Assembly (NCBI GenBank): GCA_947457885.1
Contig: CANGXU010000002.1
Span: forward strand, 548-64,547
Length of the DNA: 64,000 nucleotides
Source of the DNA: Betaproteobacteria bacterium
Lineage (GTDB): Bacteria > Pseudomonadota > Gammaproteobacteria > Burkholderiales > CAIKXV01
Direction: 5' to 3'
Shown here: piece after piece, positions 2,260 to 52,656 of the stretch
Position numbering within the stretch: position 1 is the first letter of the stretch
Layout: each line of letters starts with the position of its first letter
The notes under the pieces: model-generated
Told to the model about the DNA's origin: nothing
Database searches by the model: none
Seen by the model: the letters and a program-made list of their open reading frames with translations, nothing else
Translations under genes and position numbers: made by a program

Positions 2260-3395
2260 CGACGATCGCACTGGTCGCAGGCGAGCCCTCGGGCGACCTG
2301 CTCGGGGCGGAACTGATGGCCGCGGTCAGCGTGCGCCGTCCTGATGTTCGCTTCTGCGGCATCGGCGGCCCGAGGATGCGCGCGGCCGGACTTGACTGCT
2401 GGCATCCGATGGAGACGCTCGCGGTACGCGGCTACGTCGAGGTGCTGCGCCGCTATCGCGAGATCCTCGCCGTACGGCGTCGGCTGGTGTCGCGGCTGTC
2501 GCGCGAGAAGCCGGACCTGTTCATCGGCATCGATGCGCCTGACTTCAACCTCGAGGTCGAGCGTCGACTGCGGTCGAGGGGCGTTCGTACGATCCACTAC
2601 GTCTGTCCTTCGATCTGGGCATGGCGTGGCGAGCGAGTGAAGCTGCTGAAGGCGGCAGCCGACCGTGTGCTCGCGCTGTTCCCTTTCGAGAAGCCGTTGC
2701 TGGAAGGGCATGGCGTCCGCGCCACCTACGTCGGACATCCGCTCGCAGACCTTCTGCCCTCGTTCCCCGATCGAGGTGCGACCCGCGATCGCCTGCGCCT
2801 GCCGGCGGTGACACCGGTGATCGCACTGCTGCCGGGTAGCCGGGAGGGCGAACTCGAGTACATGGCGGACCTGTTCGTCGAGACCGCGCGCCGGCTGCAT
2901 GCCCGGCTTCCGGACGCACAGTTCCTGGTACCTCTGGTCAGCCGGGAAACGCGCACCCGCTTCGAGCAGGCGCTCTACGACCAGGACGCGCAGGAATTGC
3001 CGTTGCAGATCCTGTTCGGCCACGCACACGCTGCCTTGACCGCGGCCGATGCCGCGCTGGTGGCCTCTGGCACTGCCACGCTCGAAGCGGCACTGTTGCG
3101 CTGCCCGATGGTGATCACGTACCGGATGGCTAACTGGTCGTGGCGGCTGATGCGCGGCAAGGGCTACCTGGCTTATGGCGGTCTGCCGAACATCCTGGCC
3201 GGGCGTTTCGTGGTGCCTGAACTGATCCAGGAGCATGCGACCGCGGAGAATCTCGCGCAGGCGCTGGCCAACCTGATCGGCGATCAGGCGGTGCGGCGCG
3301 ACCTGTCTGAACTGTTCGCGCGGATGCACAGCGACCTGCGCCTGGGTAGCGCGCAGCGCACCTCGAACGCAGTGCTCGAGGTGCTGGAAGGCTAG
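2256..3395 (+). CDS. lpxB: lipid-A-disaccharide synthase LpxB
   Basis: [19 protein letters not shown]...GIGGPRM N-terminus typical of LpxB. TTG start overlaps the lpxA stop by 4 nt. Confidence 0.9.
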
Positions 3396-17081: not shown

Positions 17082-17269
17082 GGACAGGCCTTTCGCGGTA
17101 GGGACGCGGTTGTGCGCGCCGCTGAGTATACTTTCTGCGCAGCAAACGTCGGCAGAGCGCACCGCCGCCGCCGAACCACCGCCAGAACGCCAGGAGCCCG
17201 TCAGTGCCCAGCCATACGAAACCGTACCAGGTCTCGCCGTCGAACCCGGACGTCCAGGAAATCCAGACG

Positions 17270-17695
17270 ATGCCCTCGCGCCGGGTCGACATGCCCTATG
17301 CGCCTGCGATGCGCGTGACCGGTGGCGCCGACCTGCTGTTCATTTCCGGCGCCACGCCATCGCCGCTGTACCACAAGCATCCGCACGAACTTCACGAGCA
17401 CGACCATCCGAACGACATCGGAGAGCAGACGCGGCGCGCGCTGTCGGCGATCAAGTCGATACTCGATCAGGAAGGGCTGGTGTGGACCGACATCGTGAAG
17501 GTCACCAAGTACGTGACCGACATGCGCGACATGGACGGCATGGTCGCAGTACTGAAGCAGACCTTTGGCGACTGGACGCCTGCCAGTACCACCGTCTGCG
17601 TGAACCAGCTGTCTACGCCAGGCGCGCGTATCGAGCTCGACATGATAGCGGCCTACCGCAAGACCTCCGCAGATCCGGCAAAACTCAAGACCTGA
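17270..17695 (+). CDS. RidA/YjgF/L-PSP family protein
   Basis: LFISGATP...IGEQTRRALSAIKSILDQEGLVWTDIVKVTKYV...RIELDMIA is typical of the RidA fold. An alternative GTG start at 17204 has an AGGAG RBS. Confidence 0.75.
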   Translation: MPSRRVDMPYAPAMRVTGGADLLFISGATPSPLYHKHPHELHEHDHPNDIGEQTRRALSAIKSILDQEGLVWTDIVKVTKYVTDMRDMDGMVAVLKQTFGDWTPASTTVCVNQLSTPGARIELDMIAAYRKTSADPAKLKT

Positions 17696-48195: not shown

Positions 48196-48291
48196 TGGCG
48201 GAAGAGAGTGCGAGTCGAACGCACGGAGGACTGGATCACAGCCCTCACCGGGTTTGAAGTCCGGCCGTCCCACCGGGGACGTTTCCCTTCC
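48196..48291 (-). tRNA. selC: tRNA-Sec (UCA anticodon)
   Basis: Minus-strand sequence GGAAGGGAAACGTCCCCGGTGGGACGGCCGGACTTCAAACCCGGTGAGGGCTGTGATCCAGTCCTCCGTGCGTTCGACTCGCACTCTCTTCCGCCA. It folds with an 8-bp acceptor stem, a 6-bp D stem with a 4-nt loop, a CUUCAAA anticodon loop, a long 8-bp variable arm, a 5-bp T stem (GTGCG/CGCAC) with a TTCGACT loop, and an encoded CCA. It is collinear with E. coli selC and lies 20 nt after the selB stop. Confidence 0.93.
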
Positions 48292-48311: not shown

Positions 48312-50264
48312 TCACGCGTCCGGCTGTGCGTCCGTCTGCGCGGCCTCGCGGTAAACGTCGGACACCTTGCGCCGGAGCTTGCGTGCGTCGCCGACGCGCA
48401 ACGTGAGCCCGGCGCTGTCGAAGTGTTCCAGGATCTGGATGGCGAGGCTGCGGCCGATGCCTGCCTGATCGCGGTACTGCGCCGCATTGAACTGGCCACC
48501 TGGGACAGCCTGGGCAGTGGCCTCCACCAGCCGGGCGAGCGCGACGATCGCCGCCCGCAGGTACACGCGCTGCGGGTCGATGCGCACCAGTTCGCCGCGC
48601 TTGATCCGACGCTGGAGCATGGCCTGCAGGGCCTTCTCGTCGAGCTTCAGCGTGGCGGCAATCTCTCTCACCTGCGGTGGCGCATTCGGGGTCTTCGTCA
48701 GCAGCGGCCTGACCCGCTTCCACATCGCCTCGTCGGCACTGTTTGCGGACGCGTCGAAGCCCGGCAGGCGGGCGAGGCCTCCGGTGAGTTCCAGCGTGCG
48801 TGCCTGTACCGCATCGCGCAGCACCGCCTGCAGGATCTCGTCTGGCAGCGCAAGGCCGGCGTTCTTCTGCAGCACGGCCAGTTCGATGCCGGTCGCCTGC
48901 GGGGATTTTGCGTGGAAGCTGCGCACCTCTGCGAGCAGGGCCTCGCGCATTGTTGCGAGCCGGGCGGGTTCGAATGCGCGCCGCAACTCGCGCCCGAGTA
49001 CCTGCAGCCCGGCCGCCTTGTACAGCCGCTGCGCGGCTTCGGCTGTGAGGTTGAAGCGGCGCTCGAACAGCGCGACATCGATGCCGGCCGCAGCGTGCGG
49101 CAGCAGGGCCTGGAGCACGTCCGGCGGCGCGCCGCCGTCGAGCGCAGCGAGTTCCAGCTGGCGCTCGGCCATCCGCCGGCGGCGCGGTGGTGGGAACGGA
49201 TCGATCACATGCCCGCCGCCGATCGTCCGCTGGGCGGAGAAGTCGCGCACGATGAAGCGGTCCCCGGCGATCGCACCGACCGGCTGGTCGAGCACGAGTT
49301 GCGCGACCTCTGCAGTGCCCGGCGCGACGGACAGGTCGCGCCGGGTCGAGAGGCGGCCGGTGACATCGGCGGTGCCCAGGTGCAGGTGCACCGGCGTCCA
49401 GTGGCGCAGCGGGTTCGGTTCCGTCGCCAGCGCGCGCAGGTGCACGTCGATGCGGCTGGTCGGCGCATGGATGGCGGGGTCGACCAGCCATTCGCCCCGC
49501 GTGATCGCGTCTTTCTGCAGGTCGGCGCCGGTAAGGTTGACCGCGCACCGGGCACCAGCTGCCGCCTGTTCTACCGTCCGCCCCTGGACCTGCAGCCCGC
49601 GCACTCGCACGGCAACGCCAGACGGTGACAGGGTCAGGGTATCGCCGACCTTCACGCGGCCGGCGAAGATGGTTCCGGTGACCACGGTGCCGCTGCCGGC
49701 CACCGTGAAGCAGCGATCGATCGCGAGCCGGAAGTGCCTGCCTTCGGAAGCGCCCAGCCGCTGGGCGGACAGCCGTGCCACGAGCGTCTCTCGCAAGGCG
49801 TCGATACCATCGCCGTTCATCGCCGACACCGGCAGCACTGGGGCGTCGCGCAGCACGGTATCGGCGACCAGCGCGCGCAGCTCCGCGGTCACGGCCTCGA
49901 TCCGTTCGGGCGCAACACGGTCGACCTTGGTGATCACGAGCAGGCCCTGGCGAACGTCGAGCAGGTCCAGGATCGCCAGGTGCTCGCGCGTCTGAGGCAT
50001 CACGCCGTCGTCGGCGGCGACCACGAGCAGCACGAAATCGATGCCGGATACGCCGGCGAGCATGTTGCGCACGAAGCGTTCATGGCCCGGCACATCGATG
50101 AAGCCGATCGCGCTGCCGTCGGGCAGGCGCAGGTGCGCGAAGCCGATGTCGATCGAGATGCCGCGCCGCTTTTCCTCGGGCAGGCGATCGGTATCGATCC
50201 CCGTGAGCCGCTTCACGAGCAGCGTCTTGCCGTGGTCGATATGGCCTGCGGTGGCGACGATCAT
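48312..50264 (-). CDS. selB: selenocysteine-specific translation elongation factor SelB
   Basis: GTPase motifs [19 protein letters not shown] and ITKVD, plus a long C-terminal winged-helix extension. It sits between selA and selC. Confidence 0.93.
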
Positions 50265-50271
50265 CGTGCGC

Positions 50272-51657
50272 TCAGCCAGCCAGCAGCGGCAGTTGCGCGA
50301 GCAGCACTGCCTCGCCGTCGGCTTCGAGGCAGCGCAGGTCGAGCAGCAGGGCGTTGTCGTGGATGCGGCCCACCACCGGCCGCGGCAGGGCGCGCAGCCG
50401 TGCCGCGAGGCGGTCCAGGCTGCCGCCCCGGCTGGCGAACCGGATCGACAGCGCGGCCGAAGGCAGGCGGTCGACCGGCAGCGACCCGCTGCCGATCTGG
50501 CTCGAGCATTCGACCACCTCGACCGTCGCGCGTTCGCCGAGTGCCGCAGCGAACGCAGGCTTCAGGCGGATCGCGCAGGCATGGATATCCTCGCGCGGGC
50601 GGGTGAGCAGCCGCAGCGCCGGCAGCCGCTGGCGCAGACGGTCGGGATCGAGGTACAGGCGCAGCGTGGCTTCCAGCGCGGCGATGGTCATCTTGTCGAG
50701 GCGCAGCGCCCGCTTGAGCGGGCATTTCCGGATGCGGTCGATCAGCGCCTTGCGGCCGACGATCAGCCCGGCCTGCGGACCGCCGAGCAGCTTGTCGCCG
50801 CTGAAGGTGACCACGTCGGCGCCGTCGGCCAGTGATTCCTGGGGCGTCGGCTCGTGGGGCAGGCCGTAGGGAGCCAGGTCGACCAGCGACCCGCTACCGA
50901 GGTCTTCCAGCATCGGCAGCTCGTGGGCGTGGGCGATGCCGGCGAGCGTTCGGGTGTCGACGGTCGAGGTGAAGCCCTCGACCTGGTAGTTGCTCGGGTG
51001 CACGCGCATCAGGGCAGCGGTCGAACGCCCGATGGCCTCTTCGTAGTCGCGACCGTGGGTACGGTTGGTCGTGCCCACTTCCCGCAGCTTGCAGCCGGCG
51101 CGGCTCATGATGTCGGGCATGCGGAACGCACCGCCGATCTCGATGAGTTCGCCACGCGACACGATGACCTCACGGCGCGCCGCCAGCGCGGTCAGTGTAA
51201 GCAGCACCGCAGCCGCGTTGTTGTTGACCAGGGTCGCGGCCTCGGCGCCGGTGATCCGGCACAGCAGCTTCTCGACGTGGCTGTCCCGTTCGCCGCGGCG
51301 GCCGGTGGCCAGGTCGAACTCGAGGTTGGACGGCTGGCCCATCACGGCCATTACCGCCTCGATCGCCTCCGGGGCTGCCCACGCACGGCCGAGGTTGGTG
51401 TGCAGCACCGTACCGGTCAGGTTCAGAACCGGCAGAAGCCCGGGCCGGCTGTCCCGCTCCAGCAGTCGTTCGCAATCGCCGAAGAACGCGGCGGGTTCGA
51501 AGACCGCTGCCGTCGTCCGCAGCCGGTCGATCCCGGCACGTACGGCATCGAGCGCGAGCGAGCGGCCATGCCGTTCGATCAACCGCTGGCCCTCGGGCGA
51601 CCGCAGCAGGCGGTCGACCGAGGGCGGATGAACTGTTGCAGCGGCTGGTTCGTTCAC
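50272..51657 (-). CDS. selA: L-seryl-tRNA(Sec) selenium transferase SelA
   Basis: PSVDRLLR N-terminal motif, [14 protein letters not shown], and the PLP-Lys region [16 protein letters not shown] start inferred at 51657, 9 nt after the upstream stop. Confidence 0.9.
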
Positions 51658-51665
51658 GGCATGGT

Positions 51666-52442
51666 CTAGTCTTCCCAGACCTTTTCGGGAAGCGGCAGTC
51701 CCTTCAGGTCTTCCGCCGTCAGCGGCTGGTCGGGCTCGATGCCCATCCTCGACAGCAGGAACTGCAGCTGGCGGGTGTGCTGGGCCGAATGCCAGGCGCA
51801 GCGCTCGAGCAGCACCGATAACGGCTGCGTCCCGAAATAGGTCTGCACGACCTGCTTCGCTGCCGGGTCTGTCTTCTCGTGCTGCGCCCACCAGTCGTGG
51901 AGCCGCTGGCGCACCTCGGCTGCGTAGTCGGCCACCTGCTGCGGGCGGGTGATCGAATCCTCCGGCGGCTTCACCGGCTGTTCGATCGTGAACTCGATCC
52001 CCTGCACCGCTTCCAGCATCGCTTCCTGGATGCGGACCAGATGGTGAGCCAGCTCGCGGTAGGTGCGCTTGCGGCCGGACATCGGCAGCAGTTCATTGAA
52101 CTTGTCCTGCGGCAGTTGCGGCACGAAGCGTTGTGCACCCGCCAGTACCACCTCGGCGCGCTGCACCAACTGCGCAGGGGTAAGTGCCGGACCGCCGTCG
52201 AACTGCAGGCCGAGGAACTTCGCCACTTCGGGGATCACCTGGCCGAGTACCCATTGATCGCCGCGAGCGACGACGGGGGTGGTCTTGGCGCCAAGCGCCG
52301 TCAGTTCGGCGAGCCCTGCGGGGTCGTTGAAGATATCGATGATGTCGAATTCGATATCGAGTCGCGAAAGAAACTCTTTCGTCCGGAGGCAGCTCGTTCA
52401 GCCGGGCTTGGTGAAGAAGCGTATGCGTTGTGCCTGGGCCAT
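51666..52442 (-). CDS. candidate selenoprotein: glutaredoxin-like domain with a U-x-x-C redox motif fused to a DinB-fold domain (in-frame TGA at 52398..52400 read as Sec)
   Basis: ATG 52442 (GGGAGA RBS) gives [70 protein letters not shown]. This continues in the same frame into ORF 51666..52238 (DinB-like: [15 protein letters not shown]). The TGA replaces the first Cys of a Grx CxxC. There is a SECIS-like hairpin downstream, and the gene is first in the operon with selA-selB-selC. Confidence 0.7.
52358..52397 (-). promoter_or_regulatory. candidate bacterial SECIS element
   Basis: The mRNA after UGA is ACGAGCUGCCUCCGGA-CGAAAGA-GUU-UCUUUCG-CGACUCG. It forms a perfect 7-bp upper stem (52365..52381) with a G/U-containing apical loop beginning 23 nt after the UGA. 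A lower CGAG/CUCG stem begins 1 nt after the UGA. Confidence 0.6.
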
Positions 52443-52656
52443 CGTGGTCTCCCTGGATCGGTTGCATTGCGGTATCCCGCAACGAGTCGGACATTTTAGT
52501 CCATCGCGGCATTCATCGCGCGTTCGCCGTGCGATCGTCGTCGGCAGCCGGTGCGGGACGGGCGAGGGCGGTGGATGGCGGCGGGGGCGGACGTATACTC
52601 GGGGCGGACCGCGGACGCACCGCCGCGTCGATCGACGACATGGGAGGAGTGTGAGC

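Follow-up and report, generated by a model that had tools for sequence, protein, structure and literature searches.

A bacterial selenocysteine insertion sequence (SECIS), embedded in the coding region of a selenoprotein gene that joins a glutaredoxin (Grx) module to a C-terminal DinB domain, is very probably present in the stretch of DNA described here, 64,000 nucleotides (nt) of contig CANGXU010000002.1 from a Betaproteobacteria bacterium of the order Burkholderiales (hereafter, the window). The element is a small stem-loop directly 3' of an in-frame UGA codon which, according to this interpretation, is read as selenocysteine (Sec). The UGA occupies the predicted nucleophilic position of a CxxC redox motif and, among the homologues, the putative SECIS hairpin is strictly tied to TGA and not to the cysteine codons TGC or TGT (TGY).

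The gene extends over positions 51666..52442 of the minus strand and consists of 258 codons, with an ATG start at 52442 and a TAG stop at 51668..51666; translation from this ATG shows a frame that is open past the TGA to the TAG. The candidate Sec codon, codon 15, lies at 52398..52400 (minus strand), at the first Cys of the CxxC motif, which here reads U-T-S-C. When Cys is placed at the stop, Pfam recognises in the product a glutaredoxin domain (PF00462, amino acids 9-63, E=1.4e-11, 44.8 bits versus a cut-off of 22.9) and a DinB_2 domain (PF12867, amino acids 114-226, E=5e-9), and in an alignment with an NrdH-type redoxin (4fiw) position 15 falls on the first Cys of CVQC. The AlphaFold model of a full-length homologue with Cys at this position (P0016), with a predicted local distance difference test (pLDDT) value of 94.9, consists of a thioredoxin (Trx)/Grx fold joined to a DinB/YfiT four-helix bundle; its template modelling (TM) score is 0.87 for the Trx-like protein 3zit and 0.64-0.84 for the proteins DR0053 and YfiT. 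Three histidines (H134, H218 and H222) are invariant in the alignment. The NCBIfam models for Uxx-star/UXX-star selenoproteins score below their cut-offs on this product (NF041212, 33.3 versus 66; NF041211, 26.8 versus 100; NF047338, 19.3 versus 97).

In the minus-strand mRNA the UGA is followed by A (52397), CGAG (52396-93), CUGCCUC (52392-86), CG (52385-84) and GA (52383-82), and then by CGAAAGA (52381-75), GUU (52374-72), UCUUUCG (52371-65), CG (52364-63), A (52362) and CUCG (52361-58). The core of the predicted SECIS (52365..52381, minus strand) is a perfect 7-bp stem, CGAAAGA/UCUUUCG, with the apical loop GUU at 52374..52372; when the closing A-U pair opens, the loop reads as the pentaloop A-GUU-U. 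The distance from the UGA to the loop G is exactly 23 nt. An initial annotation, made from the letters of this DNA, had described the stem-loop with its sequence and coordinates, its perfect 7-bp inverted repeat and the loop G and U 23 nt past the UGA, and in all these respects it matches the window exactly. It had also proposed folding as a check, and the minimum free energy (MFE) structures computed with RNAfold do recover the 7-bp stem in 48-, 61- and 161-nt contexts, with an MFE of -9.7 kcal/mol for 48 nt and -6.3 kcal/mol for the 7-bp stem alone. In the window's clade the element extends to 52363..52385 (minus strand) through CG/CG pairs and a 5' GA bulge below the 7-bp stem; the RNA sequence of this 23-nt hairpin is CGGACGAAAGAGUUUCUUUCGCG. 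An outer helix formed by CGAG (52396-93) and CUCG (52361-58), enclosing 52358..52396 of the minus strand, is present in the window and is not a conserved part of the element. A DNA-level or terminator reading of the hairpin was rejected: no U-tract is found 3' of it, and there is no terminator-like site on the minus strand between 48000 and 52800.

Homologues were sought among 5.8 billion proteins, and DNA was obtained for 108 loci, which are designated below by L numbers. The nearest relatives among these proteins (58-93% identity) without exception have a length of about 200 amino acids and lack the N-terminus, and the homologues with 50% identity or less are full-length Grx+DinB proteins. 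A second protein search returned 5,418 members of the family, many of the best-scoring matches being cut just past the U position. The aligned codon is TGA in the window and in 33 of the fetched loci (Sec-type) and TGC or TGT in 74 loci (Cys-type), and the column shared by TGA and TGY lies in the motif PG-[U/C]-[TS]-S-C-L-[RK]-T-K-E-F-L. At least three deep lineages, with 45-50% protein identity, can be distinguished among the Sec-type genes; we call them A (the window clade and L013), B (L019 and L021) and C (L025, L026, L072 and L100-L108). About 20 independent lake or freshwater DNA metagenome runs contain the locus, and the TGA is therefore not an assembly error. In four lake metatranscriptomes there are contigs over 52315-52465, a region with the start codon, the TGA and the hairpin that leaves the selA junction (see below) outside coverage; one of the four also has a lineage-C-type transcript that shares only a 41-nt core.

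The strongest contrast between the two types of genes is in the stem itself. With pairing counted in the register of the window among 19 distinct Sec-type and 63 distinct Cys-type sequences, all seven stem pairs are formed in 17/19 of the former and the 17-nt core is identical in 16/19, whereas the latter form 2-4 of the seven pairs, with a maximum of four, in 63/63 cases (Fisher p=1e-15 versus Sec-type). The peptide TKEFL that follows the active site is common to the Cys-type proteins, which encode it with other codons, so that conservation of the amino acids by itself says nothing about the RNA. Sec-type genes use ACG, AAA, GAG, TTT and CTT for T, K, E, F and L, respectively, where Cys-type genes mostly use ACC, AAG, GAG, TTC and CTC; the next codon is TCG (Ser) in the Sec-type and mostly ACC (Thr) in the Cys-type. 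AAA, TTT and CTT are seldom used in the remainder of the lineage-A genes, where they account for 12%, 7% and 3% of the respective synonymous codons; multiplied over the six codons of the stem, such frequencies give a chance value near 3e-5.

Variation within lineage A, for which 16 distinct coding sequences (CDS) were compared, points in the same direction. Overall, 111 of the 142 amino-acid-invariant columns (78%) vary synonymously, but directly downstream of the TGA no more than 3 of 12 columns do so (Fisher p=5.5e-5). Nowhere in the gene do codons stay invariant over a longer run than in R-T-K-E-F-L-S, which is the hairpin, and the nucleotides from CGG through CGCG are invariant in all 16 CDS. 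Between lineages the flanking codons are free to vary, those 5' of the stem being CGG, AGA, CGA or AAA and those 3' of it CGA, CGC, AAA, CAA or CAG, and a change from Thr to Ala (GCG) adds an eighth stem pair. The codon-rarity test and the within-clade synonymous-variation test replaced a raw codon-identity profile, which among the deep Sec lineages gave a value of only 0.66 versus 0.54 because GC-driven codon bias creates a high baseline. The initial annotation had argued that the hairpin would constrain the choice of codons, and such a constraint is borne out by the rare stem codons, the suppressed synonymous variation and the contrast between Sec-type and Cys-type genes. As a side observation, many Cys-type loci (e.g. 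L023, L036 and L056) contain a weaker inverted repeat, GAGGA…UCCUC, at offsets of 13-33 from the TGC; it is built from an Arg AGG codon and the Phe-Leu codons TTC-CTC, lacks a G where the loop would need one and probably arises as a side effect of codon usage.

Comparison of 12 distinct Sec-type sequences also delimits the element. The inner helix, i.e. the two CG pairs together with the 7-bp stem, is paired in 92.6% of the cells of the alignment, and double changes in it are nearly lacking. The outer CGAG/CUCG helix, paired in 60.4% of the cells, was rejected as a conserved part: its pairing is disrupted even within the clade of the window, in L008, L009, L011 and L012, and lineages B and C lack it. 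Of the 12 sequences, 9-10 retain the two CG pairs; these are replaced in L019, L072 and L103-L108. The initial annotation had extended the hairpin by extra pairs to within 1 nt of the UGA; these pairs do exist in the window, but the outer four have no comparative support, and the CG/CG extension, although present in the window, is like the GA bulge a lineage-specific feature, L019 pairing the GA instead.

In Zhang and Gladyshev's model of bacterial SECIS elements (bSECIS), which PMC13188914 summarises (Fig. 2A and its legend), the apical loop is 3-9 nt long, the upper stem has 4-16 bp, the spacing from the UGA is 16-37 nt and the MFE is at most -7.5 kcal/mol, with a G within the loop's first two positions, mostly in the pattern N1-G-[G|U]-N-N2. 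The version given in the initial annotation, with the loop 16-37 nt downstream and a G early in it, agrees with this published model. The window hairpin, with its 3-nt loop, 7-bp stem, G-U, 23-nt spacing and -9.7 kcal/mol, lies within all of these limits, and as A-GUU-U, with an A:U closing pair, its loop has the commonest pattern. The fit that had been claimed is thus real, although by itself it is weak evidence, since the MFE limit of -7.5 kcal/mol does not discriminate: 63/64 Cys-type sequences pass it. Geometry is more telling, with a qualifying hairpin of -6 kcal/mol or lower in 12/12 Sec-type versus 6/64 Cys-type sequences. The loop GU is kept in 19/19 Sec-type sequences (as GUU, AGUU or GUG), and the 23-nt spacing is found in the window and in 17/19 relatives. 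The base after the UGA is A (UGAA; 52397 in the window) in 19/19 distinct Sec-type sequences; as this base also opens a codon for Thr or Ser (ACN or AGY), a protein constraint and a context constraint are inseparable at this position. A covariance model of the SECIS region (R1), used to search the window, found the element itself with 78 bits. Another match, at 17601-17641 (plus strand) with 22 bits, was rejected as a chance hit: its TGA is out of frame in a RidA/L-PSP-type open reading frame (ORF; 17204-17695), and it shares only TGAACCAGCTG.

A comparison with orthologues that keep the TGA had been suggested as a further check, and in these the structure is kept, with 7/7 pairs in 17/19 and alternative qualifying hairpins in the other two. 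The relatives that deviate from the common form, L019, L013 and L021, also support the identification of the hairpin as a predicted SECIS. In L019 an A-to-G change produces a G-U pair, and the bases equivalent to the GA bulge of the window pair with UC, which results in a 9-bp stem. L013 (L013:2636-2690), whose product is 58% identical and whose gene is not located beside selA, has a re-registered and much stronger hairpin with an AGUU loop, in which a Val codon (GUG) replaces Ser to build the stem; its MFE is -20.2 kcal/mol for 48 nt from the UGA, and its loop lies at 19 nt when stems are enumerated without gaps and at 22 nt in the MFE structure. The canonical stem is degraded in L021 (L021:3030-3080), with 5/7 pairs, and an alternative hairpin lies further 3' (the CGAUCC-GUG-GGAUCG region), with a 7-bp stem, a GUG loop, a spacing of 37 nt and -8.9 kcal/mol. 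L021, the one sequence of its type, may represent a case of SECIS turnover.

A second selenoprotein gene, in a lineage-C relative, offers independent support. In L108 (lineage C), two adjacent short ORFs annotated as 'UGSC' at 2428-3075 (plus strand) are one gene of a UGSC-family selenoprotein that gene callers have split at an in-frame TGA (approximately 2749-2751; …ITASGD-U-GSCTTW…). Its UGA is followed after 19 nt by a SECIS-like hairpin with an unrelated 8-bp stem and a GUA triloop. The two hairpins are alike in having a triloop that starts with G-U, a weak closing pair (U-G there, A-U here) and a stem of 7-8 bp, and differ entirely in stem sequence and in the protein that hosts them, which suggests that the apical G-U is their shared recognition feature. 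UGSC genes lie beside the Grx-DinB gene in L107 too.

The genes that follow the selenoprotein gene on the same strand encode machinery for Sec incorporation. The gene for selenocysteine synthase, selA (50272..51657, minus strand; Pfam SelA, E=5e-165, and Se-cys_synth_N), has its likely start at GTG 51657, separated by 8 nt from the preceding TAG. Read from 51891, where its longest ORF starts, selA would share 225 nt with the 3' end of the selenoprotein gene; GTG 51657 is probably the real start and agrees with the SelA genes of 468-472 amino acids called in the relatives. Next come selB (48312..50264, minus strand), for the Sec-specific elongation factor, with the Pfam domains GTP_EFTU, Beta-barrel_SelB, SelB-wing_2 and SelB-wing_3, of which the C-terminal winged-helix domains (about residues 510-650 of the 650-residue protein) are predicted to bind SECIS, and selC (48196..48291, minus strand), a tRNA-Sec with a UCA anticodon detected by ARAGORN and by Rfam (RF01852, 72.9 bits versus a gathering score of 47). 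The gaps are 8 nt between the selenoprotein gene and selA, 7 nt between selA and selB and 20 nt between selB and the tRNA-Sec gene. Directly after the latter lies an HNH endonuclease gene (PF14279, PF01844; 47505-48098, minus strand), a neighbour also found in L017, and upstream, in divergent orientation, are HpcH/HpaI aldolase and succinyl-CoA-ligase-like genes.

The order selenoprotein-selA-selB is found in all lineage-A loci except L013, and also in the lineage-C loci L100 and L101 (1501-3717), where selA and selB follow directly, after a 34-nt gap, a gene that is about 45% identical to that of the window. It is absent at L013, L019, L021, L025 and L072, which indicates that the hairpin travels with the TGA and not with the operon. 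In the sub-clade of L011, L014 and L017 (e.g. L017:8300-9700) no tRNA-Sec is found after selB with ARAGORN or with Rfam at E<=0.1, and selC must lie elsewhere in these genomes or be divergent; the counterpart of the window's HNH endonuclease gene is there.

Several observations weigh against the identification of the hairpin as a SECIS. Its folding energy is no better than that of dinucleotide shuffles (Z = +0.59, -0.50 and +0.25), a comparison that is uninformative in a sequence with a GC content of 67%. Such hairpins are also not rare in the window, which has 14 perfect 7-bp stems with 3-nt loops and, counting both strands, 20 perfect 7-bp hairpins with a loop G and any TGA 16-37 nt upstream. 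The significance of the putative SECIS rests on the comparative data and not on the hairpin alone. No Rfam SECIS family is detected at the gathering threshold, nor at E<=10 on 52250-52500; this says little, as a single model cannot capture the heterogeneity of published bSECIS elements (PMC13188914). The stem has almost no covariation, the A-to-G change of L019 being the one instance, probably because one side of most pairs is, on the codon map, position 1 or 2 of the conserved K, E, F and L codons; the synonymous partner positions that are free to vary are always set to pair in Sec-type genes. The structural case for the predicted element is one of invariance and of contrast between Sec-type and Cys-type genes, not of compensatory change. 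In the tree the Sec-type lineages take a basal or paraphyletic position, and some of the codons they share could in principle be ancestral, which appears implausible given the 45-50% protein identity and the rarity of the codons. Finally, selD was not found in the 64-kb window or the fetched loci with an approximate probe based on E. coli SelD.

Some of these observations would suit an inverted repeat that is a mere by-product of the peptide TKEFLS and shared ancestry, devoid of any RNA function. Lys and Phe codons are nearly complementary to each other, as are those of Glu and Leu, the Cys-type proteins have the same peptide, the folding energy is unremarkable and covariation is almost nil. 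Such an origin is, however, largely refuted by the Cys-type control, in which the same peptide goes with only 2-4 of the seven pairs in 63 sequences, and it does not accord with the otherwise rare stem codons of the Sec-type genes, with synonymous variation suppressed at the hairpin or with a 17-nt core that is preserved unchanged between variable flanks in lineages sharing 45% identity; we find it scarcely credible. About equally hard to credit is a SECIS-independent read-through of the UGA, for instance through near-cognate insertion of Trp or Cys, with the hairpin doing no more than slowing the ribosome. The modest stability of the hairpin (-6.3 kcal/mol for the stem alone) would be compatible with it, but the position is that of the catalytic Cys of CxxC and the homologues carry Cys there, a classic Sec/Cys signature; moreover, the loop G-U and the spacing agree with the SelB-dependent model, and selA, selB and selC are co-located in two deep lineages.

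Public annotation implies yet another interpretation. NCBI and gene callers give shortened proteins of 202-238 amino acids, named 'DinB family protein' or 'glutaredoxin domain-containing protein', as would be expected if the TGA were a true stop that ends a 14-codon leader peptide, with a separately initiated DinB protein downstream and a regulatory or attenuator role for the hairpin. Yet the Grx domain match (amino acids 9-63) spans the TGA, the peptide 5' of it (RIRFFTKPG) is kept in frame with synonymous changes across 12 genome loci, and full-length Cys homologues exist. The start codons that have been called are not the same from one relative to another and would truncate the Trx fold; in addition, the hairpin has no U-tract behind it, and the genes for the Sec machinery lie alongside. 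A true stop thus seems highly improbable, and a SECIS that directs Sec insertion at the UGA is by far the most satisfactory explanation of the data.

If the hairpin is a SECIS, its mode of action can be proposed by extension of the paradigm established in E. coli and Moorella. [quoted passage not shown] There, the complex would outcompete release factor 2, Sec would be inserted, and translation would proceed through what remains of the Grx fold and through the DinB domain.

The location of the gene, with selA-selB(-selC) beginning 8-34 nt after the selenoprotein stop codon in two deep lineages, raises the additional idea that the selenoprotein ORF serves a second purpose as leader or intrinsic sensor of the Sec machinery, gating or tuning selA-selB-selC. 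Under such an arrangement, ribosomes would cross the ORF, averting polarity and permitting coupled translation of selA, only when UGA15 is decoded as Sec, and SelB bound to the SECIS could also tune the operon, in a coding-sequence analogue of the E. coli selAB operator in the 5' untranslated region (UTR). We regard this role as rather unlikely.

The identification of the putative SECIS has several implications. A widespread Burkholderiales gene family is systematically shortened in public annotation, in which the Sec codon is read as a stop, and recognising the SECIS restores the full Grx-DinB oxidoreductase with its predicted selenocysteine active site. The hairpin also represents a clear example of a coding SECIS written almost wholly in synonymous codons on a pre-existing conserved peptide, for which the Cys-type paralogues serve as a built-in negative control. 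The fact that abundant freshwater bacteria repeatedly have the order selenoprotein-selA-selB(-selC) points to a Sec module that is dedicated and possibly regulates itself. The current understanding of SECIS function is unchanged by these findings.

Selenoproteins of the Grx type with a UxxC motif have been known since the Sargasso Sea set was described in 2005 (PMC1088965), and a 2026 review (PMC13188914) lists this type and cites a Clostridium Grx. The protein described here shares with the known Sec glutaredoxins the Grx fold, the replacement of the first Cys of CxxC by U and the existence of widespread Cys-type homologues, and differs from them in the fusion of the Grx module to a C-terminal DinB/YfiT four-helix-bundle domain. 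That domain has the same fold as the DinB/YfiT proteins DR0053 (6iz2) and YfiT (1rxq), which unlike it are stand-alone, without an N-terminal Grx module or selenocysteine. DinB is not mentioned in two reviews of selenoproteomes (PMC9312934 and PMC13188914), and a literature search for DinB together with selenocysteine returned no relevant paper.

Both parts of the system, the operon and the hairpin, can be placed beside those of E. coli. The 5'-UTR of E. coli selAB contains a non-coding SECIS-like operator, a repressor site that binds SelB and is situated 3 nt from the Shine-Dalgarno sequence of selA (PMC13449736). In the window, too, a hairpin that is predicted to bind SelB lies upstream of selA, on what may be the same transcript; unlike the operator, it is a putative coding SECIS located about 710 nt upstream of selA. 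The hairpin itself is a conventional member of the bSECIS class, and it is the host, a Grx-DinB fusion, that is unlisted in the reviews checked. The hairpin differs from other bSECIS elements in that its predicted stem is nearly invariant and locked by the K-E-F-L codons. The 5' bulge below the upper stem in the window's clade is reminiscent of the bulged U17 of E. coli fdhF, although the bulge is not conserved across lineages and the fdhF sequence is unrelated. Like the archetypal SECIS elements of fdhF and fdnG, the hairpin lies directly 3' of an in-frame UGA, inside the coding sequence, and presents a small apical loop with a G followed by a U.

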